Shown in pieces: positions 601-60,919 of a stretch of 64,000 bases of DNA; position 1 is the first letter of the stretch, and every line of letters starts with the position of its first letter. The position numbers and the translations under genes are program-made. Source of the DNA: an uncultured Eisenbergiella sp. GTDB taxonomy: Bacteria > Bacillota > Clostridia > Lachnospirales > Lachnospiraceae. The notes beneath the pieces were generated by a model, which was given only the letters and a program-made list of their open reading frames with translations, searched no databases and was not told the DNA's origin. Location of the stretch: positions 11,201 to 75,200 of the forward strand of contig CANRGX010000005.1 in NCBI GenBank assembly GCA_947630215.1, read 5' to 3'.

Positions 601-671
601 AGGGGCATAGTTCAAAGGTAGAACAGCGGTCTCCAAAACCGTCGATGTGGGTTCGATTCCTACTGCCCCTG
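601..671 (+). tRNA. tRNA-Trp (CCA)
   Basis: Acceptor stem AGGGGCA/TGCCCCT, D arm TAGTTCAAAGGTAGAAC, anticodon loop CT-CCA-AA, T loop GTTCGATTC. The 3' CCA is not encoded. Confidence 0.95.
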
Positions 672-6428: not shown

Positions 6429-7435
6429 GACGGTTCGCCGCCTTCTGCAGGTGCCGCGCCGGATTCCTGTTCTTCCCAGGCATCTATATCATATCCAAAT
6501 GTTTCCTTCAAATACGCTTTCCAGTCAAAAACCGCTTCCACGGACGCAATGGCCACTTCGATCATGGCGTCGTCCGGCTCTTTCGTGGTCAGTTTCTGCA
6601 GCAGCATACCGGGCGCGGAAAGAAGCCGCACGAGAAAGGCGTCGCTTCTGCCCGCCAGCCGGATGAACTCATAGGAAATGCCCGCAATGACAGGAATGAG
6701 CAAAATCCGTACCACCAGCCGCAGCAGCGGATTGGAAAGGCGGATAAACAAAAACAGTATCACGCTGACCAGCATGACGAACAAAAGGAAGCTGGTGCCG
6801 CAGCGCCGGTGCAGCCGGGAGCTTCTGCGCACATTTTTCACCGTCAGTTCCCTTCCCCGTTCAATGCAGTTGATACACTTATGCTCCGCGCCGTGGTACA
6901 TATACACTCTGCGGATATCCTTCATGGCCGAAATGGCCGCCACATACCCCACGAAAATCGCAATGCGCAAAAGTCCCTCCAGAATCGCCAGAAGGGAGGC
7001 GTTGCGTACATAAGAGGCAAACAGCGTACTGATAAAATAGGGCAGCACCACAAAGATCGCCACCGCCAGCAGCAGCGAAAAAGCCACTGTGGCGCCCGTC
7101 GCGAACTTCTCCCGCGCGCCGGAGGCTCCTGCAATCTTTTTCTCCTTCCCCTTCCGGTTGTCCTCCTCCTCATAAAAATCCGCAGACCAGGTCAGGGTGC
7201 GCATTCCCAGCACCAGAGAATCCACAAAATTGAACACGCCGCGCACAAACGGAATCCGGGAAACGGCATGACTGCCCCAGATACCGGTATAGTCCTCCGT
7301 TTTCACCTCGATCTGCCCGTCGGGCCTTCTGACGGCCACCGCGTAGCGATCCTGATTTTTCATCATCACGCCTTCCAGCACCGCCTGCCCGCCAATACCG
7401 CAGTACGCCCTCTTTTTTCTTTTCTTTTTTGCCAT
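6425..7435 (-). CDS. DUF1385 domain membrane protein
   Basis: 'IGGQAVLEGVMM', 'YHGAEHK', 'HRRCGTSF', 'TTKEPDD'; usual position between rpmE and prmC. Confidence 0.85.
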   Translation of the reverse strand: MAKKKRKKRAYCGIGGQAVLEGVMMKNQDRYAVAVRRPDGQIEVKTEDYTGIWGSHAVSRIPFVRGVFNFVDSLVLGMRTLTWSADFYEEEDNRKGKEKKIAGASGAREKFATGATVAFSLLLAVAIFVVLPYFISTLFASYVRNASLLAILEGLLRIAIFVGYVAAISAMKDIRRVYMYHGAEHKCINCIERGRELTVKNVRRSSRLHRRCGTSFLLFVMLVSVILFLFIRLSNPLLRLVVRILLIPVIAGISYEFIRLAGRSDAFLVRLLSAPGMLLQKLTTKEPDDAMIEVAIASVEAVFDWKAYLKETFGYDIDAWEEQESGAAPAEGGEPS

Positions 7436-27006: not shown

Positions 27007-27108
27007 ACTATTATATATTTGGTTATTTTTCCGAATTGACATCCGGTGCCGCCATTTCTGCGGCAAAAAAATAATTTCCTTATTTTATTTCTTTGGGAGG
27101 CATTTGAA

Positions 27109-36197: not shown

Positions 36198-36923
36198 TCA
36201 TCGCGTATTTTTGAGAATCGGGCTGAGCTTTTTATAGACCAGCAGCGTAACCAGGGACACCAGCGCACCTTTCAGCAGATTCAGCGGCACCACGCAAAGG
36301 AGCACCAGCCCCGTCACACTGTCAATGGAAGGATGGATCGCCGCTCCCATGGCGATAATGGCGTCCAGGGGCATCCCAAACATCTGGGCGAACTTGGGAA
36401 GCAGATATACTGCGTTGAACAGCGCTCCTCCCAATGCCATCAGCAGCGTCCCTGTCACAGTTCCCACAATGGCCCTGCGGCGGCTTTTATGAAACAGATA
36501 AAAGACGGAGGCAGGCAGAACCAGCATACAGCTGACCACAAAATTCGCCAGCTCTCCCACAAAGGCCGTGGACGAGGGTTTTAACACCAGCTTGACCAAA
36601 ATCTTTAAAAACTCAATCATGACACCGGCTACCGGGCCATAGGCAAACGCGCCGATGAGCGCGGGCAGCTCTGAAAAATCGATGTCATAAAAAGATGGCG
36701 CGAAGGGAACCGGAAATGACAGGGACATCAGAATCCCGGAAATAGCGGAAAAAATACCGATCACCACAATTTTCCTGGTTGCCAGCACCCGCTGGGTATC
36801 GCCGTTCCTTTTTTTGACCGCCTTTTCGATTCCGTATGCCAGCAAAAACACAAGCAGCACCAGCCCCAGAAATTGCAGGACAAAAATCAGATTCTCCGTT
36901 ACACTCTGCAGCAGTTCTTTCAT
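36198..36923 (-). CDS. ribU: ECF transporter S component for riboflavin
   Basis: 'PSFYDIDFSELPALIGAFAYGPVAGVMIEFLK', 'FVGELANF', 'PLNLLKG'; directly downstream of an FMN riboswitch. Confidence 0.85.
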   Translation of the reverse strand: MKELLQSVTENLIFVLQFLGLVLLVFLLAYGIEKAVKKRNGDTQRVLATRKIVVIGIFSAISGILMSLSFPVPFAPSFYDIDFSELPALIGAFAYGPVAGVMIEFLKILVKLVLKPSSTAFVGELANFVVSCMLVLPASVFYLFHKSRRRAIVGTVTGTLLMALGGALFNAVYLLPKFAQMFGMPLDAIIAMGAAIHPSIDSVTGLVLLCVVPLNLLKGALVSLVTLLVYKKLSPILKNTR

Positions 36924-36973
36924 TTTTAAAATCTCCTTTCCGACTGAGAAGGGAAAGTTCTTTTGTACCGCGC

Positions 36974-37003
36974 AAAAAGCCCGAAGGAAAATCTCCTTCG
37001 GGC
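36974..37003 (-). terminator. Riboswitch expression-platform terminator
   Basis: Minus strand GCCCGAAGGA-GATTT-TCCTTCGGGC-TTTTTG between the aptamer and ribU. Confidence 0.8.
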
Positions 37004-37070
37004 CATACTTGCCGGTTCTGCGGTTCCCCAAAGCTGCTCACAACGCGCTTTGGCTCCCGTATCCTGCGGT

Positions 37071-37210
37071 TGTCTTCTTTCATCCAGACTGTACTGTCGG
37101 CTTCGGAATTTCCCGACGGATTCCCAGAAATCCGCCGCGATCACCGAATCATACCTTTCGGCTCGTGGGCTGTACCACCGGTTGGGACTTTCACCCGACC
37201 CTGAAGAACT
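37071..37210 (-). ncRNA. FMN riboswitch (RFN element)
   Basis: Minus strand TTCTTCAGGGTCGGGTGAAAGTCCCAACCGGTGGTACAGCCCACGAGC...GATTCGGTG...AATTCCGAAGCCGACAGTACAGTCTGGATGAAAGAAGA matches the RFN consensus. Confidence 0.93.
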
Positions 37211-37292
37211 TCACCTCATTTATTTTTACCTGTTTATCATACTCCGCCGGAAGCAGTCTGTCAACGGTCTTTTTTTGCCTGTATGCCTCTGT

Positions 37293-46612: not shown

Positions 46613-46734
46613 TTGTCCCATCTCCAATCTCATCCTGTCCACATACAGACTAATGTATATTTTAGCAGATCCGCCGGGAAAAAGCAACAACGGCCTGCAC
46701 AGGCAGACCGTTGACACGTGATATGCTGTTTTCT

Positions 46735-48732
46735 CTATTCCGCTTCATAGGAAAAGGCTTCGCTGCAGTATCCGTCTGCGTCAAAGTGATATTCCTTTCC
46801 CTCTATCTGCGCCGTCGTATCGGCGTAAAAGCTTCCGTCCGCCTTCTGATAACGCCAGCCTGTATCGTTCTTCTTCCAGCCCTCCGGCGTGACGCCCTCC
46901 CGCATATAGGTATACAAATTCAGCTCCGCCCGGATGTCGTCGTCCTGAAAATGCCACCACTCGGAAAACAGATCGTTAAAGCCGGCGGACATCATATAGC
47001 GGGCCAGCAGATCCGCGTTCTCGTTGTTTTGGGCGATGGAAGAATACCAGCTCAAATCGTGCATTTCCGTCTGCATCGTAAGGGCTTTTCCGTCCTCCAG
47101 CCCTTCCAGCGTCAGATCCAGCGCAATTCCCCGGTTGTGGGCCGAAACCGAACTGGCCAGGAAGGAAGAAAGCCCGTAACGGCCTCCCGTCATGACACTG
47201 CCATACGTTTCCCCAATCCTGCTGCCGTCCGAGGTTCCCTGGCAGTCCTCCCCGATCCGCTTTCCCATTTTGCCGCTCATGGTAGAATACAGATAGCGGG
47301 TGGCTTCGTTGGGGCGGAACGCGTCATAGATCCGCAGCCGGTATCCGTCCCGTCTGACCATATTGACCGCCTGCAAAAGCCGGTTCGCGGTGGGATACAA
47401 AAGCGGCACCAGATAGCTGTCCGTATCCAGACAAATATCCTCATAGCCCGGTATTACCGTGTCCGTAATTTCCGGAATGTCATAGCCGTGCACCCGAAAC
47501 AGGGAAGCACAGCTGTTTTTGATGTCATAAGCGCACAGATCCCCCAGGTATTCCGCCAGATTGATCATGCAGTATCTGCCGTCCACCCAGCCTGCCGTAT
47601 CCTGGTAACGGACGAGGAAAAAATCGCCCTCCTGGCGCAGGACGCAAAGGGCCGTCCCCGCCGGAATGCGCCCCAGGCTGCCGGTGCCATCCGCATTTTC
47701 CCAGAAGGGCTGCTCCAGCAGGGGCCAGACCGTACAATACAACGGCGAAACCTCCACGCGGAACGTGACCTCATAAGGGTTGGCGGTGAAATTCTCCGTC
47801 TCCTTCTGCTCTGTTGTGTCATAGGCAATGACCCGGAAGCGAACCTGGGTTCCGGAGGGCAGGGTGCCTGCCTCGTACCGGTTTTCCCCGCCCTCCAGGA
47901 CAGCGCACGTCAGCCAGTCGTTTTCCTTTGCGGACCATCGCTGTACCTCGCAGTACTTTCCCTCCACGCTATCCCACTCCAGCGCGTACTTTCGATCCCC
48001 CAGCCCTTCGTAGGTCAGATTCAGCTGGCCGCCGAACAGCTCCCGGTGGGAAATTGCCACCGGTTCCGCGTAGGCGCTGTAAGAAACGTATCCGTCCCCC
48101 TGCACCTTCGTCCGCACCGTAAACAGAATCGTATCCCGATCCCGCAGAACGTCAAAATCGGCCCCCGCAGACAGACAGATCAGAGGGCTGTCGGATTCCC
48201 CGATGCTCTGCCACGCTCCCTCTTTATCCTGGATATATATTTCATAAACGTTTCCTTCCGTTTCCGTACATCCCAGGAAAATCTGCTTGTCCACGCTGTC
48301 CACATCGCCTTCCAGCCTAGGCTGTCCAAGCGCCACCGGCTCGATCAGAAACTCCGAAACGTCCCCTTCCTTCTTTCGGGACATATGCAGCAGATTCACC
48401 GTTTCCCGGATCGGCTGCAGGCGCAGATAAATCTTCTCTCCCTCCGCCACACCGGCCAAAACCACGCTGTCTTTGGGATATTCTCCCAGCGCCGTATAAC
48501 TGTCCCCGTCCAGACTGTATTCCACTCTGCACCGGGAAACGGAAAGCTGCGAAGGCCAGGACAGGGACAACTGTCCCTCCTGCAGACTGATCTGCAGCGC
48601 CCCCGCCGGAAGCACAGGCTTTGCCCCCGCAGGCTGTAAAAGCAGGCCTGCGCCGAAGGCTGCCGCAAAAAGCAGCCCGACGCCCAGAAGAATCAGGATA
48701 ATCCGAAAAACGGCCCCAAACCATTTCTTCAT
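46735..48732 (-). CDS. Membrane-anchored modular M15 (VanX/DdpX-like) metallopeptidase A: TM, FN3-like domains, SH3-like domain, M15, cell-wall-binding repeats
   Basis: 'IYDAFRP', '[13 protein letters not shown]' (SxHxxGxAxD), 'EWWHF'; C-terminal '[16 protein letters not shown]...EYHFDADGY'. Confidence 0.8.
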
Positions 48733-50144
48733 CCGACGTTTCCTCCCACCCTTCCTTCATATAAAATCCGGCAGTCTTCCCCGGATTTTGTCATCACCTT
48801 CACCCAAAACTGTGTCCCCTCCAACTGGAGCTTCGACAAATATAACGTATATCCGTAATCGGTGTCTACGCCGTTTTCCTTTGTCTGGACGCAGAACGCC
48901 TCAAAGACCCTGCTTTGCTTTCCGTCCCCGATCTCCAGCAGGATCGGGCTGTCTGTTTCCAAAAACCGCGCGTCTGCGGTTCCCGAAAATTTCCAGTAGC
49001 TGCCTTCCTCCCCCAGACAGAGCGTGGTATTGCTTTCCGTTCTTTCACAGTCCCCCGGCCAATCCCTTTGCATGGCGCTCATCAGCGGCGGGACGCTGCC
49101 CAGCGTGGGCAGGTGCCGCTCCACCTTTTCCAGTATCACCACGTCCGATTCCGATGTGATCAAATCCGTCATGGGATAGGGCACCTGTTTGGAAAACGTG
49201 GCCTTCTGAAATGCCAGGGCAAAGAAGGGAAGCAGGGAATTTCCAAAGGAATCCCGATACATCAGCAGATTTTTTGTCCCTGTATCGGATACGGTCTGAA
49301 TGTAGTCGTCCTCCACATCGTCCCCCGTCAGATACGACCAGCCCTCCGTGGGCGCGTAACAGATCTCCTCCTCCGGCTGTGCGCCCACCGGATAAACCAT
49401 CCGATTCAAATCCCCGTAATAGGCCCGACTGTTCTGGGACGGTCTGTTTGCATAGCCCGGATTCTCCTTCCCGCAGGCTGTCAGCAGCGCGTCTGAAACC
49501 AGCGCCGCGCCCTTCTGGTTCCAGTGGGAATCCCGCGCATAATACAGCGTTTCTTCCTGCCCGCCAAATAGCGCGTACAAATCCACATAGGCCACGCCCT
49601 CCCGTTTCAGCCAGGGCAAAAGACGTTTGGCGTCGCTCTCCCCGGCCGCCTGCCAGCAGTACCGGGCAGGCATATGCTCCCCGTACAGGGAATTTTTATT
49701 GGGCGCAATGGTAAAGACAAAGGTCTGCCCCAGGCTCCGGGTATACTCCTGCATCAGCGCCAGATTGTGCGCCATATTGAAAAGCATCCGCTCCGACACC
49801 CCGTGATTGTGCTGGAAATCGTCCAGTGTGGCCGCATAGTACAGCCAGCCGTCTTTTCCGGTAATCACGCTGTCCACAGGAGAGGTTTGGAAAATCCCGT
49901 TCCGGATCCGGGCGTCCGCCGCCACCAGTTCCTGGCGGAACGCAAAATGATCGGTGAAATACTCGCCCGCCTGCTGTAAAAAATCCGTATGGATACCCGA
50001 CTCATCCGTCAGCGCAGGCCATTGGGCCAGCGTTGTATTTTCCGTGGTCTGCATTGTCGGCCAAAAGATCATTCCGGCCAGGGGAAGCAGGCAGATCCCT
50101 AAAACCAGCACGCAGTACAGGATGTCCATTCTGTTTTTCTTCAT
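48729..50144 (-). CDS. AlgX/AlgJ (DHHW-like) SGNH-type acyltransferase, membrane-anchored
   Basis: N-terminal TM; 'ENTTLAQWP'; 'VITGKDGWLYY'; D-x-H motif 'RDSHWN' preceding Ser motif 'RDSFGN'. Confidence 0.8.
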   Translation of the reverse strand: MKKNRMDILYCVLVLGICLLPLAGMIFWPTMQTTENTTLAQWPALTDESGIHTDFLQQAGEYFTDHFAFRQELVAADARIRNGIFQTSPVDSVITGKDGWLYYAATLDDFQHNHGVSERMLFNMAHNLALMQEYTRSLGQTFVFTIAPNKNSLYGEHMPARYCWQAAGESDAKRLLPWLKREGVAYVDLYALFGGQEETLYYARDSHWNQKGAALVSDALLTACGKENPGYANRPSQNSRAYYGDLNRMVYPVGAQPEEEICYAPTEGWSYLTGDDVEDDYIQTVSDTGTKNLLMYRDSFGNSLLPFFALAFQKATFSKQVPYPMTDLITSESDVVILEKVERHLPTLGSVPPLMSAMQRDWPGDCERTESNTTLCLGEEGSYWKFSGTADARFLETDSPILLEIGDGKQSRVFEAFCVQTKENGVDTDYGYTLYLSKLQLEGTQFWVKVMTKSGEDCRILYEGRVGGNVG

Positions 50145-50161
50145 CGTTACTCCCCCGCTCC

Positions 50162-51556
50162 CTAAAATCGGAAATAAATGAACGGATTATAGGTGCCGCC
50201 CGACAGACTCAGCAGACACAGAACCAAAAGCAGGACGGAAGCCGCGTAGGAAAGGGGCCGCGTCCAGCTTCTTTGTCCCAGGCGCCGCCGCGCCCAGTCC
50301 CCGACCGGCAAAGAACCGATCACCGCTGCCGCCAGCGCCGCGAAAAACAGCCCGTTTAACGGGGCCGTGGCTGCGGCGGCCACACCGGCGTTAAACGTTA
50401 CCCCCGTAAACATCGCCGCCAACATTCTGCCGGCCTGTCCCACGCTGTCGGAGCGGAACAGGACAAAGCCCACACAGACCACAAGCAGCACATAAAGATG
50501 CCCGAACAGACTCTTTTTTCCCTTCCTGGGGAAAATCGTTTCCAGCGTCAAAAACAGGCCGTGATACAGCCCCCAGAGAACGAAGGTCCAGTTGGCCCCA
50601 TGCCAGAGCCCCGTGCAGAAAAATACAAGCAGACGGTTGATCCACGTCCTGGTTTTGCCCTTGCGGTTCCCGCCCAGCGGGATATAAAGATATTCCCGAA
50701 ACCAGCCCGTCAGGGAAATATGCCACCTTCTCCAAAAATCCTGCATACTCGCCGCGATATAGGGGTGATCGAAATTTTCCTTGATGGAAAACCCGAACAT
50801 CCGGCCCAGACCGATGGCCATATCGCTGTAGCCGCTGAAATCAAAATAAATCTGCAGCATATACGAGACCGCCCCTATCCAGCCTGCCGCCATGGAAAGC
50901 TCTGCTGCCGGCAGGGCGTACACATAATCCGCCGCCGCGCCCATGGTATTGGAAATCAGCACCTTTTTGGAAAGCCCCACAATAAAACGCCGCAGTCCCA
51001 GGGCGGTGTTCCGGGGCGTCTGCGTCCTGTCGTCAATCTGATGCGCAATATCCGCATATTTCACAATGGGGCCAGCGATGAGCTGCGGGAAAAAAGAAAT
51101 ATAGAGCAGCACCTTAAAAAAACTTTTTTCCGCTTCCGCCTTTCCCCGGTACACGTCGATCACATAGGAAAGCGCCTGGAAGGTGAAAAAGGAAATGCCG
51201 ATGGGAAGGCGGATCGAAACGGCAGGGAGGGAAAGTCCCGTCAGAATGTTCACCGTTTCCAGAAGCATTCCCGTATATTTGTAAAAGGCCAGCATTCCCA
51301 GATTCAAAACCACCCCGACGCCCAGCAGCGCCTTTTTTGACCTTTCGGGCCTGCCGGGAAAGGCCCTGGCCAGAAGATAATTGCCGAATACGCAGACGAT
51401 CATCAAAAGGACATACACCGGCTCCCCGTATGCGTAGAACAACAGACTGATTCCCACCAGCACCGCGTTTTTGGCGCGCAGAGTGGGCATCAGAGCGTAG
51501 AGCAGAAAGCCCAGCGGCAGAAAAACACACAGAAAGGGCATCGAACTAAAGGCCAT
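50162..51556 (-). CDS. MBOAT family O-acyltransferase (AlgI/PatA-like)
   Basis: 'LPIGISFFTFQ', 'FFPQLIAGPI', 'QIYFDFSGYSDMAIG', 'FWRRWHISL', catalytic His in 'GLWHGANW'. Confidence 0.93.
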   Translation of the reverse strand: MAFSSMPFLCVFLPLGFLLYALMPTLRAKNAVLVGISLLFYAYGEPVYVLLMIVCVFGNYLLARAFPGRPERSKKALLGVGVVLNLGMLAFYKYTGMLLETVNILTGLSLPAVSIRLPIGISFFTFQALSYVIDVYRGKAEAEKSFFKVLLYISFFPQLIAGPIVKYADIAHQIDDRTQTPRNTALGLRRFIVGLSKKVLISNTMGAAADYVYALPAAELSMAAGWIGAVSYMLQIYFDFSGYSDMAIGLGRMFGFSIKENFDHPYIAASMQDFWRRWHISLTGWFREYLYIPLGGNRKGKTRTWINRLLVFFCTGLWHGANWTFVLWGLYHGLFLTLETIFPRKGKKSLFGHLYVLLVVCVGFVLFRSDSVGQAGRMLAAMFTGVTFNAGVAAAATAPLNGLFFAALAAAVIGSLPVGDWARRRLGQRSWTRPLSYAASVLLLVLCLLSLSGGTYNPFIYFRF

Positions 51557-51567
51557 TTTTTTCTCCT

Positions 51568-52452
51568 TCAGAAAATCACAGGCCACTCCGCCTGCTTGAT
51601 CAGAGGTTTCACCGGATAGGTTTCATAGGTTTTAAAGTAGAAATCCTGCTTTTTGGCATCCTCCATATCCGGATCGAACAGATACCATTCCTCCCCGATC
51701 AGAATTTCCGTCCAGCCATGCGGGGTCACGCCTCCCCGGGCGGAATGAATCTGTCCCGTAACGACCCGGGTCTCATAGCCCAGTCCCCGTGCCAGACTGG
51801 CAAAGGCGGCCGCATAGCGGAAACAGTTGCCCTTCCCGGTGGTGAAAACCTCCAGGGCATACTCCCCTGTCCAGTCCCCGGCAGGCGTCTCATAAGTTCT
51901 CTTATAGCTGGTATGATCCAGGATATACTGATAGGCGGCCCGCAGCTTCTGATCCGCCGTCATTTCCGGCGTGGTAATCGTTGACAGGATCTGCGTCACA
52001 CATTGGGCGAGCGGCGAGGCCTCCTGGGGCAGAATTTCCTCCAGCTTTCCGTCCTTCCCGAACCGGTACTGTCCCACCGTCGCATCCCTTACCATCACGC
52101 CGTCGTTTCCGAAAAAGTAAAGCGCGTCTTTTTCCGAAAGCCATCCGGTAAAAAGGCTGCCGTCCGGCTTCAGATAATAGGTGGATCCGTCCACCTCGGT
52201 CATACCCACCTGGATATAGCCGCCACCGTCCAAGTGCCATTTCAGATCCCCCAGTGCAATCCAGCAGTCCTTTGCCCATGTGCCGTCCGCGTTCTGCCAC
52301 ATCACGCCGCGATCCGCCTGCACAAAGCCGTAAGAAATCCCCTGTGCCCCTGCGCCCGGGGCCGTCTCCTGAGCCAGCGCCCTGATGCCGCCCGCCCAGA
52401 AACACCCGACCGCCGCTATCAAAAGCACCGCTCCATAAACGCCCTTCTTCAT
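51568..52452 (-). CDS. Secreted transglutaminase-like protein with cell-wall-binding repeats
   Basis: Signal peptide; repeats 'WIALGDLKWHLDGGG' and 'YYLKPDG'; Cys-His-Asp motifs 'GNCFRYA', 'HGWTEI', 'WYLFDP'. Confidence 0.8.
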   Translation of the reverse strand: MKKGVYGAVLLIAAVGCFWAGGIRALAQETAPGAGAQGISYGFVQADRGVMWQNADGTWAKDCWIALGDLKWHLDGGGYIQVGMTEVDGSTYYLKPDGSLFTGWLSEKDALYFFGNDGVMVRDATVGQYRFGKDGKLEEILPQEASPLAQCVTQILSTITTPEMTADQKLRAAYQYILDHTSYKRTYETPAGDWTGEYALEVFTTGKGNCFRYAAAFASLARGLGYETRVVTGQIHSARGGVTPHGWTEILIGEEWYLFDPDMEDAKKQDFYFKTYETYPVKPLIKQAEWPVIF

Positions 52453-55181
52453 CTTCCCGTTTCCTCCACGCAATAGCCTTCCTCGTCAAAGGTATATTCC
52501 CGGCCGTCCACAGTCAGCTTCCCACCGGTAAAATAGCTGCCGTCCTCCTGCCGGTATTTCCATCCCCTGTCATCCTTTTTCCAGCCCGTAATTTCCAGTC
52601 CGGAAGCCAGGTAGGTATTCAGCCCCAGTTCGTTTCTCGTCTCGTCGTCCTGGAAATGCCACCATTCCGACGTCAGATCGTGGAATCCGATCCCCTTCAT
52701 ATACTTCGCCAGCAGATCCGCGTTTTCATTGTTATAGGGCAGAGCGGAATGCCAGCTCAGATCGTGCATATCCGTCTGCATCGTCAGACTCTCCCCGGTA
52801 TCCATGCGCTCCAGTGTCAGATCCAGCGCGATTCCTCTGTTATGGGCGGAGGTCTCCGCGGCCAGAAAACTGCCCAGACGGTATCTGCCGTCCGTCATGG
52901 CCGTGTAAAAGGTCTGGGTATTTCCCTGCAGATAACTCCGAAACGCCGCCATCTGATCCGGCGTCAGTTCCTTTAAGGCGATGAGCTCCTGACGGGTCAT
53001 TACGCTAAGCTTCTGTAAAAGATCCGGCGTCAGCCCATAGCCTACGGCCACCGCCGTCATCTGTTCCGGCGTCATGCCGTATGCCAGCGCAATCTGTTCC
53101 GGCGTCGGAAAATCGGCCGTGACCGAAGGATCCTCCGTCTCCTGGGAAGGCAGTTCTGTCTCCTGGGGAATCTGGGTGTCCGCATTTTCTTCTTCCTCCT
53201 GCCCGTCTGTTTCCCTGGGCAGGAAAAATCCCGTGACTGCCAGCAGATCCGCAGACAGAACCTGAAATACCTGAAATTCCTCCTCGGACAGATTTCTGAG
53301 CATGGTCACCGTCTGTCCCGAAATTATATCCAGTCTTTGCACCGTCTCGGCAGGCAGACCCATGGCCGTCAGTTCCTCCGGCGTCTTTTCCGAAAGCAGC
53401 GCAATGACCTCCGGCTCCAGGCCGCCGTACAGATCCTTTTCCCCGTCTTCTTCCTCCTGCCCGTCCGGTTCCTGCCGGGCATCCGGTTCCTGCTGGCCTT
53501 GCTGCTCCTGCTGATCGTCCGGCACCGCCGCCGTGCCTTCGGTTTCCTCCCCGGGCTCCTGCGTCTTTGTTTCTTCTTCCTCGTCTGCCGGCAGCTTCGG
53601 AACCGGCAGATCCAAAAGCAGTTCCGTGGTGTCATAGAGAAACCGCGTGGCCTCATTGGGCCGGAACGCATCAAAAATGCGCAGATAATAGCCGTCTTCC
53701 CGCACGGCCTCCGCCGCCGCAATCAGTTTCTTGGCGCAGGGATAGAGATAGGGCACCAAAAACGTGCCGTCCTCCAGCTGTACGCCCTCATAACCCTTCA
53801 CCACGGTTCCCGTAATACCGGGAATTTCATAGCCGTGGACGCGGAAAATGGAATCGTATCCGTTGGCAATATCGTAGGCACACAGATTCCCCAGATACTC
53901 CGACAGGTTGATCAGGCAATAGCGGGCGTCCACATAGCCGTAAGTATCCCGGTAGCGTACCCGGAAGCGTCCGTTTTGCTCTCCCAGCACGCACAGCGCC
54001 TCTCCCGCCGGTATCTGAGCCAGCGCGTTTTCTCCGTCTGCACTCTCCAGCAGATTTAAGGGCATAATCGGCCATACCGTACAGTAATATGTGGAATATT
54101 CCGTGCGGAAGGTAGTTTCCAGCGGCTCGTCTACAAACTGCCCTTCCTCCCGCTGGTTTTCGGTATCATAGGTCACTACCCGGAAGGACACCTGGGTACC
54201 GGAGGGCAGACGTCCGGTTTCATAGGACAATTCCTGTGTCCAGTCGTAGGTGGCCATGGTGACCCAGTCCCGCTCCGTATCCGACCACTGCTGCAGGGCA
54301 TAATATCTGCCTTTTCCTTCTTCCCATCTCAAAATATACTGACAGACATCAATCCGGCCGCAGCTTAATCCCTGTCCTTCCTCTATGAGTTCACTGCGCT
54401 GGATATAAACGGGATCGGACAGTTCTCCATAGAGAAGACAGCCGCCTTCCCGCCTGCCCTCCCGCACTGCCAGGCAGACCGGATGATCCCGGTCAGGCAT
54501 CGCTATCCCGTGGACAAAGTCCAGTTCCACCATTCCGTAGACGTCCTGGGCATACAACTCCCAGGAGCCGTCCTCCCCTTTTTGGAACACCTGATATTCA
54601 CAGCCGGGCACCGCCGTCCAGAACAGGGAAACCCTCTGCGGATCCGCACCGGCGCTTTTGGTCAGCACCGGCCGGCCAGGTTTTGCGTCATCTACAGAAA
54701 CTTCCTTTTTTTCTCCTTTGAAAACATGGGAAATCCCCAGAATTTCTGTCTCCCGTACCGCCTGCAGCCTAAGCCGCAGCGCTCCGCCGCCGTCAGGCGG
54801 CAGGGGCAGGTACGCTTCTGTATCGTATTCGCCATACAGCGTCCAGGTCTTTTGTTCTGTTTCATATGTATACAGACGGCATTTGTCGTTTTCCCGCAGG
54901 GCAGGCCAGGTCACTTCATAACCGCCGTCCTTCATGCAGATCTGGATCTCTCCTTCCCCGAATACCGGCCGGTTCACGCGCCAGTAGAGAAAGAACCCGG
55001 CCCCGCCTATAAAGGACAAAACAAGGATCACCAAAAGAGCGCAGGCGAAGACGGACAAAAGTTCCCGGATTACCCGCCGTCTCCTGCGCTTTTTTCTTCT
55101 CGTCCCTCCGACGCCGCCATAGCTAATCGGCTGATACCGGACCAGACCATAATTCCGCCGTCTGCGCCCTCTGCGTTTCAA
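52449..55181 (-). CDS. Membrane-anchored modular M15 (VanX-like) metallopeptidase B with a ~230-aa acidic insertion
   Basis: Paralog of 46735-48732 ('LPSGTQV.FRV..YD', 'YCTVWP', 'YCLINLSEYLG', '[12 protein letters not shown]', '[13 protein letters not shown]', 'EWWHFQDD'); TTG start after GGGAG. Confidence 0.8.
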   Translation of the reverse strand: MKRRGRRRRNYGLVRYQPISYGGVGGTRRKKRRRRRVIRELLSVFACALLVILVLSFIGGAGFFLYWRVNRPVFGEGEIQICMKDGGYEVTWPALRENDKCRLYTYETEQKTWTLYGEYDTEAYLPLPPDGGGALRLRLQAVRETEILGISHVFKGEKKEVSVDDAKPGRPVLTKSAGADPQRVSLFWTAVPGCEYQVFQKGEDGSWELYAQDVYGMVELDFVHGIAMPDRDHPVCLAVREGRREGGCLLYGELSDPVYIQRSELIEEGQGLSCGRIDVCQYILRWEEGKGRYYALQQWSDTERDWVTMATYDWTQELSYETGRLPSGTQVSFRVVTYDTENQREEGQFVDEPLETTFRTEYSTYYCTVWPIMPLNLLESADGENALAQIPAGEALCVLGEQNGRFRVRYRDTYGYVDARYCLINLSEYLGNLCAYDIANGYDSIFRVHGYEIPGITGTVVKGYEGVQLEDGTFLVPYLYPCAKKLIAAAEAVREDGYYLRIFDAFRPNEATRFLYDTTELLLDLPVPKLPADEEEETKTQEPGEETEGTAAVPDDQQEQQGQQEPDARQEPDGQEEEDGEKDLYGGLEPEVIALLSEKTPEELTAMGLPAETVQRLDIISGQTVTMLRNLSEEEFQVFQVLSADLLAVTGFFLPRETDGQEEEENADTQIPQETELPSQETEDPSVTADFPTPEQIALAYGMTPEQMTAVAVGYGLTPDLLQKLSVMTRQELIALKELTPDQMAAFRSYLQGNTQTFYTAMTDGRYRLGSFLAAETSAHNRGIALDLTLERMDTGESLTMQTDMHDLSWHSALPYNNENADLLAKYMKGIGFHDLTSEWWHFQDDETRNELGLNTYLASGLEITGWKKDDRGWKYRQEDGSYFTGGKLTVDGREYTFDEEGYCVEETGR

Positions 55182-55233
55182 TCTCCCATTCTCCCAATCA
55201 TCTTAACAAACCTGACCGCGCTTTTTCTCCCGT

Positions 55234-55755
55234 TCAGTCGTCAATATACTCCACATGGCCATCGGAATACAGCACCTCCCAGTATCCGCTGTCCATGCCG
55301 CAATCTTCGATATAAGTCCGGCTGACCTCTGTCACGGCGCCATCCTGGGCCTGGGCTTCCGCCTGTGCTTGTGCTTCCGCCTGAGCCGCCGCTTCTGCTT
55401 CCGCCTCTGCCTGCGCCTGGGCTTTTGCCTCCGCCTGGGCCGCCGCTTCCGCCTCTGCCTGGGCCTGCGCTTCCGCCTGGGCCTGGGTTTCATCCGCCGT
55501 TTCCTTTTCGGTTTCTTTGGCGTTTTCTGCCGGCATCTGCGTCTTGGGTTCTTTCTCCTGCTCCGGTTCTTCCTGCGGCAGATTTTCTGTCTTTTCCTCC
55601 GGTATTTCCAGACTGTCCGCCGTTTCCGTCTCCACGGCGCTTTCCACGGGGGCCATTACCTCAACGGCCGTATTCTCTACACCCGTTTCTGTCTGCACGG
55701 TCGTGCACCCGGAAAGCGTTACAGCAATTCCTATAAAAATCAGCCACTTTTTCAT
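55234..55755 (-). CDS. Lipoprotein with acidic and (EAQA)n stalk and a short C-terminal beta motif
   Basis: Lipobox 'LSGC'; RBS AGGAGG; C-terminus 'EVSRTYIEDCGMDSGYWEVLYSDGHVEYIDD'. Confidence 0.75.
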   Translation of the reverse strand: MKKWLIFIGIAVTLSGCTTVQTETGVENTAVEVMAPVESAVETETADSLEIPEEKTENLPQEEPEQEKEPKTQMPAENAKETEKETADETQAQAEAQAQAEAEAAAQAEAKAQAQAEAEAEAAAQAEAQAQAEAQAQDGAVTEVSRTYIEDCGMDSGYWEVLYSDGHVEYIDD

Positions 55756-55907
55756 TTTATCCTCCTGTATTAGGCAATAAAGTCCTTTTTATTTTTGTAA
55801 ATTATTGCTTAATCAATTTTTTATCTATTCTAAAAGAGCTACCATACAATACTCCAGCAGGAACCCATTTCCGAGATGAAACAGTATGCACAGTATGGCA
55901 TTTCCTG

Positions 55908-57932
55908 TTAACCGTAACATAATATCCAATAGCACCTCTGACCCGGAATATAATAATACGCACATCCGATTTCATGAACATCATTATTCAATATGTCTTG
56001 GGCACAGTTTCTCAATGTGGAATTTACAAATAATTCCCCAGAAATGTATGAAGGCATACTAGCCCGAATCATATCATAATATTGATATTCGCCTTGTCCA
56101 TGCGCAAACGAAAAAGAAATTGCTTTAGCATTTTCCTCCATTTCATTATTCCAGACTAACAATGGTAACCCTGCTTCTACTCTTGCCTGATTCAGTAACT
56201 CCATCACCTTTTGTGCCTCTGCGATCTGCAGGCCCTCAGAACGGTTGTCTTTTTTTGATTTTTCAGGATTGCCTTCTGTCTGACTCTCCGGTTCCCCCCT
56301 CTCTTGTGTTTCTTCCTCCTCAGTTTCACTCTCCGGTTCAGGCTCCTCATCATTAATGACGATCTGGATCCGCTTCCCCTGCTTCTCCACAGACCCTGCT
56401 TCCAGACTTTGACGGATGATCTTTCCCCTCTCTACATTCTCCACAAGCTCATATGCTACCTCCGCCTCCATTCCGGCTTCTTCAATCAGTGATAGGGCCT
56501 CCTCCAAAGTCTTATACTGCACATCCGGAACAAATGTTTCTCCTTCTTGCAGCTCATAGCCGTTCCCCTGATTCTTCTCCCCTCCGCTCACCACTACCTC
56601 GACCAGTTCTCCCTTCGGGGCGATACTGCCCGCCGACATGGATTGCGTCAGGATTCGATCTTTCGGTATCTCCTCAGAGAATTGTTTATCCATGATCCGG
56701 ATCCCCAGTTCTCTCTTTGCCAGCAGTTCTTCTGACTCTTTTACTTCCCGGTTCACTATATTCGGTACACGGCTCCGCCCCTCCGGTACTCCAAAATTCC
56801 CAAAATCATATATTTCAAACTGAATCACCCCTGTCGCCAGCAGCAGTAGAAATAAAACCATGGCCGCAGCAGAAACCGCCGATATCAGAAATACAGGGCG
56901 GGGTATCCTGCCTATCTTTCTTTCTACCGTCCGTACAAAGTGCTCTTTTGCCTTTATCTGGCCACTCAGCTCCAGCAAAAACTGCTCCGCCGTCTGCGTT
57001 CGATTTTTTATCTCCACATTCAGCGCGTTCATAACGGCCCGATCCGTCTGTCGGGAAATCTTTGCTCCCGCTTTGGACGGCGCTTTCAAGGTATCCTTTC
57101 TTCTGCGCTCCAACGCTCCCGCAGGCACTTTACCGGTCAGCATATGATACATCGTCGCGCTGCAGGCATAGACATCCGTCCAGGTTCCCTGATCTCCCCG
57201 GCTCCGGTACTGCTCCTCCGGCGTATAACCCTCTTTGTAAAGCACCGTCAGACTCTTGCTGTAGGTTCCGGTTACGCTTCTTGCTGCGCCAAAATCCAGC
57301 AGCTTCACTTCTCCATCCGTTGACAGGAAAATGTTATTAGGAGCAATGTCCCTGTGGAGGATACCTTCCTTATGCACCGCCTCCAAGGCCTGCAGTACCG
57401 GAAGCATGATTCTTATCGCCTCCTGTTCCGGCAGTTTCTTTTCCCGCTGCAGCCGCTGGGCAAGCGTTTCTCCCTCCAGATATTCCATTACGATATAGGC
57501 CGTGCCGTTTTCCTCAAAGCTGTTATAAATACGGACGATCCCCGGTATCTCCTGAAACTTTGCAAGTTTCCGGGACTCCTCGTAAAACTTGCTCTTGCCG
57601 TCTTCGAACTGTTCTGTCTTTTCCCCACCGTAGACGGTGACCTGGGTCTGTCCGGGCATACGGGTAGAGAACTCCCCCGGCAGAAATTCCTTTACAGCCA
57701 CCTTCTGTTCCAGCACCTGATCCCAGGCGGCATAGGTTGTCCCGAACCCGCCTGCTCCAATCACAACACCCAATAGATACCGGCCCTGCAGAATCGTACC
57801 CGGCCGGAGATACTGCGGTTCCAGAGGGACTGTCTCATTATGACCACAATGAGGACATACATTGTACTTCGACTCATATAACTCAAAGCATCGGTAGCAT
57901 CTTTTTAGCTCAGTTTGATCTTTTGATGGCAT
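55908..57932 (-). CDS. Hanks-type Ser/Thr kinase: Zn ribbon, kinase, TM, two PASTA, CAP-like C-terminus
   Basis: 'CYRC...CPHCG', 'GAGGFG', 'VAVKE', 'HRDIAPNN', 'DFG', 'TDVY'; PASTA 'VPNIV'/'VPDVQ'; 'LNQARVEAGLPLLVW...YWILCYG'. Confidence 0.88.
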   Translation of the reverse strand: MPSKDQTELKRCYRCFELYESKYNVCPHCGHNETVPLEPQYLRPGTILQGRYLLGVVIGAGGFGTTYAAWDQVLEQKVAVKEFLPGEFSTRMPGQTQVTVYGGEKTEQFEDGKSKFYEESRKLAKFQEIPGIVRIYNSFEENGTAYIVMEYLEGETLAQRLQREKKLPEQEAIRIMLPVLQALEAVHKEGILHRDIAPNNIFLSTDGEVKLLDFGAARSVTGTYSKSLTVLYKEGYTPEEQYRSRGDQGTWTDVYACSATMYHMLTGKVPAGALERRRKDTLKAPSKAGAKISRQTDRAVMNALNVEIKNRTQTAEQFLLELSGQIKAKEHFVRTVERKIGRIPRPVFLISAVSAAAMVLFLLLLATGVIQFEIYDFGNFGVPEGRSRVPNIVNREVKESEELLAKRELGIRIMDKQFSEEIPKDRILTQSMSAGSIAPKGELVEVVVSGGEKNQGNGYELQEGETFVPDVQYKTLEEALSLIEEAGMEAEVAYELVENVERGKIIRQSLEAGSVEKQGKRIQIVINDEEPEPESETEEEETQERGEPESQTEGNPEKSKKDNRSEGLQIAEAQKVMELLNQARVEAGLPLLVWNNEMEENAKAISFSFAHGQGEYQYYDMIRASMPSYISGELFVNSTLRNCAQDILNNDVHEIGCAYYYIPGQRCYWILCYG

Positions 57933-57933
57933 T

Positions 57934-59826
57934 TTAGGATTCTCCAACAAACAGTACCCTTTCAATATATTTATCCAGACCGGTGAAATCCGGGTTGACT
58001 TCCTGATATACCTGCAGTACACTTCGATTCAACGGCAAAAAATTATGATTTTGTACTGTCAGATAATCCTGGGCAGTTTCAGACAAAAAATAGTAAAGAA
58101 GCCGTATTGCTGCAGCATATTCGTCGGATGATGCAGCGGCATTTATGCTCCACAGATTTTGGAAGGTTCCCTTGTTCTGTGCCGTATTTTCCGGAAATTC
58201 TATCGTATAAATCCCGGGAAGCTCCTGCTGTACTTCCGCATATTCCTTTATGCTCCCCAAATAACCGGCTTTTCTTTGTCCCAAAAAATCGTCACAGGTA
58301 AACTGCCTGATTTCTTCAAGTTCTTCTCCTTGATAGAGTAATGCGTTTTTATATAGAACCGGCACATCAAACGTCAACGGAAACTGCTTGAGAGAAGGAT
58401 AATAGTTCTGATAATCCTCCAGAAAATAGTAATCTCCCGGATCAAATAAAGAAAACTCTAAAAGTGAGTCAAGCGTTGCAAGCTTATCATACTCCGCTTT
58501 ATGCAAACAGCTACTGTCAAACAGCACCGGGGCCGTCCCTTCCTGTAGGGCCTGTTTTAGGACTGACTCGTATTCATTTGCATCAATCGCTGTGATTTCC
58601 ACCTGTACTCCTGCATTGTTTTTCTGAAACTCCTCCACCATATAATGGAACATACGCTCTGTTTCTTCTTTTTGCGATGTTTCTGCATAGGGCGTCCAAA
58701 TCGTAATCATTGCAGGAGCTAAAACTGCTTCTCGCCGTATTGCATAAAATTGATGGACACAAAAAAACGCGCCCGATAATAACATAATCATAATTGCCGC
58801 GATCCAACTGTTTCTTTTGCGACGGCGAAAACGAATTTCTTTCTTTGCATCCCTCCCCTCTTTCTCTGAACACAGTGCCCGGGAAAACTGCTCAACAGAC
58901 TGAAATCGTATCTCCGGTTGTATCGCCATTGCCCGCATTACCGCATTGTTTATAGATATAGGAAGCTCCGGATTAATGACCCGCGGTTCTTCTACCAAAT
59001 CCTCTATTTTCCGGTTGATAGATTCTTCCGGTTTGATCCCCGTCAGCATTTCATAGAGCACTGCCGCCATTGCATATATATCCGTATATGGACCTTGTTT
59101 ACTTTTTGTCTGATACTGTTCGGCAGGCGCATAGCCCGGAGTGATAATAATGGTTCTTGTTTTTTCTGTTTCGCTATCAGAAAAACGGGCGGCGCCAAAA
59201 TCTATCAGCTTGATCGTACCATCTTTACATATAAAAATATTTCCCGGTTTTATATCCCGGTGAATGATTCCGGCAGCGTGCGTTGCTTTTAATGCACTTA
59301 ATACAGATTGTGTAATCTGGAGGGCTGTTTCTACGCTAATCTGATTCCCCTGTTCCCAGTTTCCCTGCATAAATGTTTTTAAGCTGTAACCGTCCAGGTA
59401 TTCCATTACAAAATATGCCGTTCCATTTTCTTCAAAAAAGTCATATATATGCACAATATTGGGATGAGAATTAAATTTGGCCATATTTCTGGCCTCATCC
59501 AGAAATTCTCTTTTTCCCTTCTCAAATGCACTCAGATTTTTCTTATCGTATACATTCACCTGCACTTCACCGGTCACTCGGTTTAAAAAAGTCGTAGGAT
59601 AATACTCCTTTATAGCAACTATCGTTTCCAGATTTGTATCCCATGCCCTGTAGATTACACCGAAACCGCCAAATCCGATTACTGTACCAACGATATATTT
59701 CCCTGCAAGCATCACTCCCGGATAAAGATGATACGATTCTCTCGGCCTGGTGCCCTGCACAAATCCGCAATAGGGACATTTTTCGTACTCGTCGGTATAT
59801 TCCTTCATACAATTTAAGCATCTCAT
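57934..59826 (-). CDS. Hanks-type Ser/Thr kinase: Zn ribbon, kinase, TM, extracellular solute-binding-protein-like domain
   Basis: 'CLNC...CPYCG', 'GFGGFG', 'VAIKE', 'HRDIKPGN', 'DFG', 'GYAPAEQ'; ectodomain 'ITIWTP...VEEFQKNNAGVQVEITAI...GTAPVLF'. Confidence 0.88.
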   Translation of the reverse strand: MRCLNCMKEYTDEYEKCPYCGFVQGTRPRESYHLYPGVMLAGKYIVGTVIGFGGFGVIYRAWDTNLETIVAIKEYYPTTFLNRVTGEVQVNVYDKKNLSAFEKGKREFLDEARNMAKFNSHPNIVHIYDFFEENGTAYFVMEYLDGYSLKTFMQGNWEQGNQISVETALQITQSVLSALKATHAAGIIHRDIKPGNIFICKDGTIKLIDFGAARFSDSETEKTRTIIITPGYAPAEQYQTKSKQGPYTDIYAMAAVLYEMLTGIKPEESINRKIEDLVEEPRVINPELPISINNAVMRAMAIQPEIRFQSVEQFSRALCSEKEGRDAKKEIRFRRRKRNSWIAAIMIMLLSGAFFCVHQFYAIRREAVLAPAMITIWTPYAETSQKEETERMFHYMVEEFQKNNAGVQVEITAIDANEYESVLKQALQEGTAPVLFDSSCLHKAEYDKLATLDSLLEFSLFDPGDYYFLEDYQNYYPSLKQFPLTFDVPVLYKNALLYQGEELEEIRQFTCDDFLGQRKAGYLGSIKEYAEVQQELPGIYTIEFPENTAQNKGTFQNLWSINAAASSDEYAAAIRLLYYFLSETAQDYLTVQNHNFLPLNRSVLQVYQEVNPDFTGLDKYIERVLFVGES

Positions 59827-59827
59827 A

Positions 59828-60043
59828 TCAGAACCCTTTATCCGTATCCGTTTCTTCCAGACAGATTACGGTTTTATCATCTTCCAAAGAACTATCCTGC
59901 AGCTTCACTGTTTTTTCGTCATCCCAAGCGTCCTTATAGATATTCTCTTTTTTCACAACTTCAAGGGAAATCCCGCAATAAGGACACCGGAAAAATTTTT
60001 GATTATCATAAAAATGCCCTTTTGCACATATTGTAACAGCCAT
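59828..60043 (-). CDS. 71-aa Zn-ribbon microprotein with acidic D-x-T-V motifs
   Basis: 'ICAKGHFYD....RCPYCG', then 'DDEKTV' and 'EDDKTV'; RBS GAGGAGG. Confidence 0.7.
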   Translation of the reverse strand: MAVTICAKGHFYDNQKFFRCPYCGISLEVVKKENIYKDAWDDEKTVKLQDSSLEDDKTVICLEETDTDKGF

Positions 60044-60054
60044 TTTCGCCTCCT

Positions 60055-60789
60055 CTACCGAGTTAACCAGACACAAATAGCCGAATAATTATCCATCATT
60101 CTTCCAGTGCCATTCTTCAACACGGTCTCTTTCATCATATCCGCCCAATTCTGGGCACTGTCTGCTTTCCGCAGAGCTTTCAGCATGGCCTTTTCCTCTA
60201 TCAATTCCCAAAATCCATCCGTGCATAACAACAGAGCTTGTTTTCTTTTTCGGCCGACTGATTCGCCTAACTCATATTCGTTTTCTCTGCTCCATTCTGC
60301 TCCGAGTGCCTTCATCAATCGGTTTCGATCCGGATGAAACCGAATATCCTTTTCCCGAATTTCCTTTGCATAAACCAGCATTTGAGGCACGCTGTGATCC
60401 AAGGTGCGTTTTACAAGCCTAAAGCCCCCTTCAAATAAATACAGCCTGGAATCGCCTATATGCCCCCATCTGATAGAATCCCGATTTACACAACAAATTA
60501 CCATTGTTGTCTTCATATCCATCGTTTCACATGCGTTCTTTTGTTCTTGTATCAACCTGTTTTGACACAATTTAAAAACATCTGGCAAATAATCATCATA
60601 AAATCCGCGTTTTTCAAACATCTTCAGCGCAGTCTGCACAGCCAGTCCGGAAGCGACCTCCCCTTTTCCGTGTCCGCCCAATCCGTCGGCAATCACAAAG
60701 CACCACTCGTCTCCTCTGCTCTTATATCCAATCGTATCCTCATTGATATCCCGGCTTCCTTTTTCACTGATAACGCCTACCGAAACCAT
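60055..60789 (-). CDS. PP2C/PPM-family Ser/Thr phosphatase
   Basis: 'G.R..NED', 'VIADGLGGHG', 'HIGDSRLY', 'LLCTDG', 'DNYSAI'. Confidence 0.92.
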   Translation of the reverse strand: MVSVGVISEKGSRDINEDTIGYKSRGDEWCFVIADGLGGHGKGEVASGLAVQTALKMFEKRGFYDDYLPDVFKLCQNRLIQEQKNACETMDMKTTMVICCVNRDSIRWGHIGDSRLYLFEGGFRLVKRTLDHSVPQMLVYAKEIREKDIRFHPDRNRLMKALGAEWSRENEYELGESVGRKRKQALLLCTDGFWELIEEKAMLKALRKADSAQNWADMMKETVLKNGTGRMMDNYSAICVWLTR

Positions 60790-60919
60790 TTGACCATTTC
60801 CTCCCATATATGCAGCATGATGCGCACTGTTGTATCTATCCGAAATAAGTCTCCATCAAAATGAAAAAACACGGCGCCCAATCTGAAGGAGAAAATGAAC
60901 ACTTTTCAACACGCGGATA

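Follow-up and report, generated by a model that had tools for sequence, protein, structure and literature searches.

A set of six co-oriented genes from an uncultured Eisenbergiella species appears to specify a self-contained operon for modification of the cell envelope. The genes lie on the minus strand at positions 46735-55755 of the 64,000-nucleotide stretch analysed here (the window; contig CANRGX010000005.1, positions 11,201 to 75,200), and they encode, in this order, a small lipoprotein, a VanX-family metallopeptidase (M15-B), a secreted transglutaminase-like (TGase-like) enzyme, an MBOAT acyltransferase, an AlgX-like SGNH-type transferase and a second VanX-family metallopeptidase (M15-A). 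The cluster is an operon-like set of extracytoplasmic envelope enzymes, and we consider it probable that it joins an acyl relay of the PatA/PatB type to wall-tethered, peptidase-like enzymes that act on the same wall. The relay is of a known kind; what is new is its invariant TGase-like partner, the ecto-VanX peptidases and a conserved mini-domain borne by the lipoprotein.

MBOAT-SGNH pairs are a general bacterial route for acylating extracellular polymers, the chemistry of which has been worked out only recently. The present results identify a large MBOAT-SGNH clade in the dominant gut Clostridia (Lachnospiraceae, Oscillospiraceae) that is invariably tied to a wall-binding TGase-like enzyme and often also to a family of membrane-anchored VanX-type ecto-peptidases. 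Should the coupling be functional, it would amount to a new pathway of wall remodelling in organisms about whose envelopes hardly any work exists, with possible effects on autolysin targeting, on sensitivity to lysozyme and glycopeptides and on the muropeptides released to the host; the candidates can be tested, since their catalytic residues are named and one carrier strain, Lachnospiraceae bacterium A4, is in culture. The initial annotation had presented the combination as undescribed, and this still holds, inasmuch as no paper came up in full-text literature searches that joined transglutaminase(-like) and MBOAT with cell wall or peptidoglycan, and the homologues are unnamed.

Conservation of the gene linkage

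Linkage was assessed from two anchors. An alignment of M15 homologues led to 80 loci from species-representative genomes, in which the partner genes were mapped by tblastn, and in 38 of these loci (Lachnospiraceae and Oscillospiraceae) TGase, MBOAT and SGNH genes were found within 7 kb on the same strand, so that the synteny of M15 with all three, for which the initial annotation had proposed a neighbourhood check, does recur. Among the 32 loci with both flanks of at least 6 kb, all three partners are present in 15, a TGase only in 3 and none in 14; chance adjacency is estimated at around 1% if a genome has a handful of MBOAT genes. Five classes of locus can be told apart. The first, in Lachnospiraceae, reads M15B-TGase-MBOAT-AlgX-lipoprotein or a permutation thereof, and M15-B homologues occur in it; the second, in Oscillospiraceae (Scatomorpha, Faecousia and others), reads TGase-MBOAT-(TGase)-AlgX-(TGase)-M15; the third unites M15 with a protein of 530-630 aa that has transmembrane (TM), Ig-like and TGase parts, with a 420-aa MBOAT and with a different SGNH/GDSL-like protein; the fourth consists of TGase-M15 pairs without MBOAT, for example adjoining secA in several Eisenbergiella; and the fifth is M15 by itself, mostly in Oscillibacter. 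The four-part set occurs in three gene orders and has been re-formed with non-orthologous versions of the TGase and SGNH proteins, which argues for selection on the combination. As a separate observation, class-3 SGNH/GDSL-like partners (L047, 14729-15760; L081, 15087-16310) have 'GDCE' where SGNH block I normally reads GDS, so that the presumed nucleophile position is Cys instead of Ser.

The reverse search, anchored on the AlgX-like protein and carried out on metagenome contigs, found an MBOAT gene directly upstream in 56/56 loci having upstream sequence, and a TGase-core gene on the same strand in each of the 22 loci flanked by 4.5 kb or more on both sides, only two of which contained M15. 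The conserved core is therefore composed of the TGase-like, MBOAT and AlgX-like genes, with M15 as a frequent but facultative partner. Of the four-gene unit (M15-MBOAT-AlgX-TGase) first proposed for this locus, the TGase-MBOAT-AlgX part stands as invariant and the M15 part does not; the accompanying picture of two peptidases bracketing the remaining genes is not conserved, and the two units lie on different contigs in sister metagenome-assembled genomes (MAGs). In the latter, all of them Eisenbergiella, TGase-M15A-secA-prfB is found on one contig (L008, L007) and M15B-TGase-MBOAT-AlgX-lipoprotein on another from the same MAG (L074 with L008, L060 with L007), so that the arrangement in the window is a lineage-specific merger of two modules. 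Pfam-annotated neighbourhoods place MBOAT-AlgX-TGase-M15 beside lexA and a sugar ABC transporter, and TGase-MBOAT-AlgX-164aa-M15 beside flagellar genes; the module is found as a unit in unrelated genomic contexts and is in this sense mobile as a unit.

These counts bear directly on the alternative that there is no functional coupling at all, and that independent surface enzymes have become co-located through shared secretion or growth-phase regulation. Such an account would agree with the M15 gene standing alone in 14 of the 32 fully flanked loci and with the arrangement in the window being a lineage-specific merger; it is at odds, however, with the invariance of the TGase-MBOAT-AlgX triad, with the re-formation of the four-component linkage from non-orthologous SGNH and TGase versions, with a fusion between the lipoprotein mini-domain and an AlgX homologue (described below) and with the ATGA overlaps between genes of the cluster, which suggest translational coupling. 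We regard it as very unlikely.

The closest genomes are uncultured Eisenbergiella MAGs from rabbit gut, and the M15-A of one locus therein (L005) is 80% identical to that of the window. Between M15-A and secA this locus contains, at 6937-7386, a partial second TGase-like copy that is 76% identical to the TGase of the window and covers about half of it; since the window has only 122 bp between M15-A and secA, the junction has been rearranged recently. A larger version of the neighbourhood is held by the cultured isolate Lachnospiraceae bacterium A4 (L014, KE159527, 1000-20000). Its order begins with an SGNH-like gene, a 189-aa gene, an 83-aa carrier-like protein (PP-binding_2) and a 522-aa MBOAT ending in FIYNQF, continues with an asparagine-synthase homologue, a 238-aa gene, an AMP-binding enzyme, an Ig-like-TGase protein and M15, and ends with a Wzy_C O-antigen-ligase-like protein, a TPR/LRR protein and MBOAT-AlgX-lipoprotein-TGase; it is possible that a carrier-dependent (aminoacyl?) MBOAT system stands there beside one of the acyl-CoA type.

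Components of the cluster

The domain assignments of all six products are backed by Pfam and NCBIfam, and the same six genes result from independent gene calls on identical public contigs. Most of what the initial annotation had read from the sequence was borne out: the six co-oriented genes in their order, the 4-bp ATGA overlaps at 52449-52452 and 48729-48732, the gaps of 11 and 17 bp flanking the MBOAT gene (the AlgX-like start is 17 bp downstream of it), the intact catalytic motifs of all five enzymes, the residues of which are located below, and the absence of any glycosyltransferase, acyl carrier protein, adenylation enzyme or ligase within about 10 kb of the operon. The same is true of the wall-binding repeats ascribed to three enzymes, since repeats of the CW_binding/choline-binding type are present at the C-terminus of M15-A, the C-terminus of M15-B and the N-terminus of the TGase-like protein. 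The cluster is likewise not a standard alginate, dlt or van locus, the defining genes being absent and, for dlt and van, the model scores lying under their cut-offs.

The MBOAT acyltransferase (464 aa; 50162..51556, minus strand; PF03062, E 5e-37) is of the PatA/AlgI type. Its closest solved relative is DltB (E 1e-26), both conserved His residues of which align with H279 (WHISL) and H319 (LWHGANW). The last six codons of the gene (50165..50182, minus strand) encode FIYFRF, an acyl-shuttle hexapeptide of the form FxYxxF with Tyr461, and FIYxx[F/Y] ends 39/39 MBOATs of the related loci listed as well as four copies of the present locus. In the corresponding motif of PatA the Tyr is auto-acetylated from acetyl-CoA and the acetyl group is then passed to the SGNH partner, whereas DltB does not have the motif and depends on DltX and DltC (PMC12148441). 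The lack of a carrier protein and an adenylation enzyme can be understood from the fused FxYxxF shuttle, which is typical of acyl-CoA users of the PatA/AlgI/WssH class.

D-alanylation of teichoic acids by the Dlt system resembles the present case in that an MBOAT and an SGNH-type protein form a relay via acyl-Tyr. One could accordingly suppose that what the MBOAT/SGNH pair attaches to a wall polymer, as an ester, is D-alanine or some other amino acid, and that the VanX-like enzymes serve D-Ala supply or D-alanyl removal. DltB being both the best solved relative and the best NCBIfam model of the MBOAT speaks for such a scheme, as does the A4 locus, in which a second MBOAT by TGase and M15 is flanked by the AMP-binding enzyme, the 83-aa carrier-like protein and the asparagine-synthase homologue. 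Yet the score obtained with the DltB model (TIGR04091) is 162 bits, far under the cut-off of 375; DltB needs DltX, DltC and DltA and has no fused shuttle motif, while the present MBOAT has the motif and none of the three is encoded in the cluster or elsewhere in the window. For these reasons a dlt locus was rejected, and the Dlt-like scheme is given hardly any credence here.

The AlgX-like protein (471 aa; 48729..50144, minus strand; PF16822, E 2e-17, 64 bits) is an AlgX/DHHW-type SGNH-like transferase with an N-terminal TM anchor (H5-27), a circularly permuted SGNH-like domain and a C-terminal beta-sandwich (residues about 358-467). Its triad D205/H207/S299 is invariant in homologues (D205-x-H207-W, R-D-S299), and by the motif definitions of PMC9487903 the protein has RDS as block I and RDSHW as block V. 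Bacillus cereus PatB1 is the best sequence match in the PDB (E 8e-9). An AlphaFold2 (AF2) model (pLDDT 87.6) retrieved AlgX (7ula, 4knc), PatB1, the DHHW protein 4nzk and AlgJ with Foldseek at E 1e-10 to 1e-12; AlgX was at the top of the list, and its alignment extends through the C-terminal beta-sandwich. Many homologues match both PF14286 and PF16822.

The nearest parallels in organization are PatA1/PatB1 (and PatA2/PatB2) of B. cereus and B. anthracis, which O-acetylate the secondary cell wall polysaccharide (SCWP) and likewise consist of a Gram-positive MBOAT next to a membrane-anchored, circularly permuted SGNH-like transferase. PatB1 and the AlgX-like protein share the fold (TM-score 0.63 on target), block I (K/R)DS and block V D-x-H-W, but the latter has an extra C-terminal beta-sandwich, and the TGase-like, M15 and lipoprotein neighbours found here have not been reported beside MBOAT-SGNH pairs in the literature searched. 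With AlgI/AlgJ/AlgX (and AlgF) of Pseudomonas alginate synthesis the locus shares an MBOAT bearing FxYxxF, a two-domain AlgX-type transferase and PF16822; the differences are a sequence identity of about 13%, a monoderm host and a small lipoprotein instead of AlgF. An alginate locus was rejected, as there are no alginate biosynthesis genes, AlgF or AlgK in the window or the related loci.

Kinship with AlgX raises the question of whether the MBOAT/AlgX pair acetylates a secreted exopolysaccharide, as has been proposed for CcsH/CcsI or for AlgI/J/X, with the peptidases as unrelated autolysins linked to it by accident. Besides AlgX being the top structural match, it can be argued that an MBOAT and DHHW pair, CcsH/CcsI, belongs to the cellulose synthase locus of Clostridia, where it is thought to derive from pairs that modify wall polysaccharides (PMC7710045). 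CcsH/CcsI are, however, always accompanied by ccsA, ccsB and ccsZ (synthase, accessory protein and GH5), none of which is at the present locus, and no synthase, glycosyltransferase or glycoside hydrolase genes occur with the pair in the window or in the loci of other context. Because no synthase genes travel with the module, because its invariant neighbour is a wall-binding TGase-like protein and because chance would hardly bring about a linkage to M15 in three independent gene orders, this explanation has a low probability.

The TGase-like protein is a secreted Cys-His-Asp enzyme (294 aa, with signal peptide; 51568..52452, minus strand; Transglut_core PF01841, E 2e-18), in which N-terminal repeats of the choline-binding/CW_binding type (Choline_bind_2/3), matching the CROPs of TcdB as well as LytA, precede the transglutaminase core. 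None of its triad residues (C210, H245, D260) varies among 13 homologues drawn from three locus classes. The pseudomurein endoisopeptidases PeiW and PeiP, together with other PF01841 enzymes, similarly have a Cys-His-Asp core joined to wall-binding repeats, and the Pei enzymes cut a wall peptide bond; nevertheless, no specific sequence relationship to them was detected beyond the Pfam core, and the wall of the present host is murein rather than pseudomurein.

The small lipoprotein (173 aa; 55234..55755, minus strand) has an LSGC lipobox with an LPAM_1 match, followed by an acidic linker with AQAEA low complexity and by a conserved C-terminal mini-domain of 34 aa that matches no Pfam family. 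The mini-domain adjoins TGase-MBOAT-AlgX in 13 related loci with an identity of about 67-85%, above that of the enzymes, and it is fused at the C-terminus of an AlgX homologue of 822 aa (P0181) with 79% identity. Owing to this Rosetta-stone link, the sequences mark the lipoprotein as a genuine component of the system and not a bystander. Its AQAEA linker (window 55380-55480) varies among near-identical strains, with about 12 nt of indels at 55453-55459.

Both peptidases are membrane-anchored members of the VanX family. M15-A (665 aa; 46735..48732, minus strand; Peptidase_M15 PF01427, E 1e-11) is made of a TM helix, three FnIII-like domains, an SH3 domain, the catalytic domain and a LytA-type wall-binding repeat, a topology from which it follows that these enzymes face outwards. 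M15-B (M15D; 910 aa, TTG start; 52449..55181, minus strand; PF01427, E 2e-12) follows the same plan: a basic cytoplasmic tail and a TM helix lead into a beta-rich spacer and SH3, after which come the catalytic domain, here split in two, and a wall-binding repeat at the C-terminus. The catalytic residues of M15-A (R473, S530, H532, D539, E591, H594) and M15-B (R507, H780, D787, E839, H842) align, for the Arg, His, Asp, Glu and His positions, to R71/H116/D123/E181/H184 of VanX and thus supply the Zn ligands His-Asp-His, the catalytic Glu and the transition-state Arg of the M15D fold. Across 32 homologues the Arg and the motifs SxHxxGxAxD and ExxH show no variation. Among M15 structures, M15-A matches VanX (1r44) and no other (E 1e-6 with the single sequence, 6e-12 with a profile). 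A Foldseek search with the whole AF2 model of M15-A (pLDDT 82.8) returned FnIII tandems alone and was uninformative on the catalytic domain, so that the VanX assignment rests on the sequence and profile matches.

The catalytic domain and its residues are those of VanX/DdpX/PcgL (MEROPS M15D) and VanY/VanXY, yet known enzymes of the VanX type are single-domain proteins of about 200 aa, in contrast to the 665-910 aa, the membrane anchors and the multiple domains found here and to the split domain of M15-B. PcgL illustrates that the family is able to work outside the cytoplasm. With the VanX equivalog model M15-A and M15-B score 33-42 bits against a cut-off of 320, and a van locus was rejected, since the flanking 10 kb are free of dehydrogenase, ligase and VanRS genes. 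The split in M15-B is due to an acidic, helical insert of about 230-250 aa (52914..53609, minus strand; 16% Glu) between the Arg motif and the His-Asp motif; it has no Pfam match, and its length varies among near-identical strains (18-nt indel at 53451). VanX-type M15 with SH3 has been catalogued as a cell-wall peptidase architecture, without further study (PMC6403190). In a set of 1.84 billion representatives, the long M15 architecture (E at most 1e-30) makes up 324 clusters at 50% identity, every one of them unnamed, and individual Eisenbergiella/Lachnospiraceae MAGs have two or three long M15 paralogues at separate loci (L009/L024, L005/L070, L010/L055, L011/L046).

Proposed mechanism and the acceptor of the acyl group

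In the mechanism that we favor, the MBOAT would pick up an acyl group, most probably the acetyl of cytoplasmic acetyl-CoA, and load it onto Tyr461 in its own extracytoplasmic C-terminal hexapeptide; from there the group would be passed to Ser299 of the membrane-anchored AlgX-like protein, which may then esterify a wall-associated glycan while its C-terminal beta-sandwich holds that glycan; the lipoprotein presumably acts together with the AlgX-like protein. Up to the Ser intermediate, these predicted steps follow established family chemistry and the motifs observed, whereas the donor, the acceptor, the substrates of the peptidases and the logic of their coupling are inferred. The TGase-like enzyme would be an obligatory partner, probably a wall peptidase or amidase, or else a de-acylase that edits the mark, and M15-A and M15-B would most likely remove or hydrolyse the C-terminal D-Ala-D-Ala of stem peptides; all three are expected to be tethered to the wall by their CW_binding repeats and SH3 domains.

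As to the acceptor, a secondary wall polysaccharide or teichoic-type polymer is our tentative first choice, with a likelihood that we place somewhat short of even. It is favored because O-acetylation of peptidoglycan in Gram-positive bacteria is normally carried out by the AT3-SGNH enzyme OatA. The AlgX-type beta-sandwich points in the same direction, given that the PatB of Gram-negative bacteria has no carbohydrate-binding module. Furthermore, PatB1, the nearest characterised relative in sequence, acetylates SCWP, and the mark that PatA1/PatB1 places in Bacillus governs the binding of wall-associated proteins (PMC9487903). By analogy, the acyl mark of the present system could tune where the repeat-bearing hydrolases bind or act, and the analogy itself favors the SCWP/teichoic-type acceptor.

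Peptidoglycan is a less likely acceptor, which we entertain only with reserve. A fuller alternative built on it, along the lines of the initial annotation, assumes that the MBOAT/AlgX pair O-acetylates peptidoglycan MurNAc while the M15 and TGase enzymes trim the same sacculus, with altered recognition by lysozyme, glycopeptides or NOD as a result. The class of mechanism would be the same as that of PatA/PatB, and the PatA/PatB/Ape1 cluster for O-acetylation of peptidoglycan (OAP) in Neisseria and Campylobacter shares with the present locus both the relay, from acetyl-CoA to an MBOAT Tyr, an SGNH Ser and the polymer, and the pairing of transferases with a wall-active hydrolase, Ape1, although the hydrolase is an SGNH esterase there and of the TGase-like and M15 kinds here (PMC12148441). 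The partners, too, come from families of peptidoglycan peptidases, in keeping with the listing of VanX-type M15 plus SH3 as a cell-wall peptidase architecture (PMC6403190). Against this, PatB1 acts on SCWP and not on peptidoglycan (PMC9487903), and the PatB of the OAP cluster is of the canonical SGNH kind and has no carbohydrate-binding domain (PMC12148441), unlike the AlgX-like protein with its beta-sandwich. Together with the usual role of OatA, these points make the full scheme unlikely in our judgement.

Several observations weigh against a coupled wall-modifying system with a polysaccharide acceptor as proposed here. The acceptor is not a property that can be deduced from sequence, and VanX is a strict dipeptidase, so that activity of the M15 proteins on stem peptides is an assumption; moreover, all M15 and AlgX-like homologues are unnamed or labelled 'hypothetical protein'. 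M15 is missing from most TGase-MBOAT-AlgX loci (2 of the 22 have it) and often stands alone, mostly in Oscillibacter, its coupling to acylation being therefore facultative, and the metagenome loci are partly redundant, with many near-identical strains, such that the effective sample is smaller than the counts. The AlgX-like protein does not have the DxRY block (block II) of PatB1, reading FSKQVPYP after block I, and its score with the DHHW family PF14286 is 24.6 bits against a cut-off of 25; by these features it is to be classed as an AlgX/DHHW intermediate rather than a PatB1 orthologue. The signal of co-transcription in RNA libraries is weak: all six genes are partly covered by near-identical contigs in one metatranscriptome, and a 1064-nt contig crosses the MBOAT/AlgX junction, but these contigs are undirected, come from that single metatranscriptome and may include DNA, and one of them also crosses the terminator described below.

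A more far-reaching interpretation, which we consider quite improbable, makes the TGase-like enzyme the obligatory third catalytic component of a previously unrecognised MBOAT-SGNH class of gut Clostridia. Its Cys could, for example, take the acyl group or a stem-peptide acyl-enzyme as a thioester and write a new covalent wall mark, either by N-acylating or transamidating stem peptides or by attaching an acylated polymer; beforehand, the VanX-family ecto-peptidases would take D-Ala-D-Ala off the stem, and the lipoprotein mini-domain might be an adaptor.

Boundaries of the module and its surroundings

An AT-rich intergenic region of 152 bp (55756..55907, minus strand) upstream of the lipoprotein gene probably contains the promoter and forms the left boundary of the module. 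Within it, an AGGAGG ribosome-binding site stands 8 nt ahead of the lipoprotein ATG, and a weak sigma-70-like match lies at 55911-55883. At the other end, an intrinsic terminator with an 11-bp stem, a UGUG loop and a U-rich tail (46678-46713, minus strand) separates M15-A from secA; the minimum free energy of the 76 nt around this hairpin is -24.4 kcal/mol. Apart from this strong terminal hairpin, a scan for promoters and terminators found sites no more numerous than in shuffled sequence, and an Rfam search found no RNA element within or adjoining the operon.

The point at which contigs of related strains cease to agree with the window is exactly 55765, a few bases ahead of the lipoprotein gene, and hence the genes that follow are placed outside the unit. 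These are, at 55908-60807, a PP2C phosphatase and two Ser/Thr kinases in tandem. A PASTA domain is present in one of the kinases, and the other has a weak match to a solute-binding-protein-like ectodomain; the kinases were rejected as members of the module, the upstream neighbours being different in related strains and species. Between 58000 and 64000, a segment with the second kinase, the PP2C gene and two TPR-protein genes, the G+C content falls from about 0.55 to 0.41-0.45, which may be a sign of foreign origin.

Elsewhere in the window, the plus strand at 27046-36144 encodes a surface protein of 3032 aa with 16 DUF7601 and 14 DUF5979 repeats and Cna_B-type segments, probably a giant adhesin. 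A tRNA gene (601-671, plus strand) and an FMN riboswitch (37068-37212, minus strand; 87 bits), the latter upstream of a 277-aa open reading frame (ORF) at 36198-37031, are the only Rfam matches in the window. Finally, a 739-aa ORF at 2229-4448 (minus strand) brings together, in an unusual pairing, LPG_synthase_C, the C-terminal domain of aminoacyl-phosphatidylglycerol synthases, and a complete M18 aminopeptidase domain.

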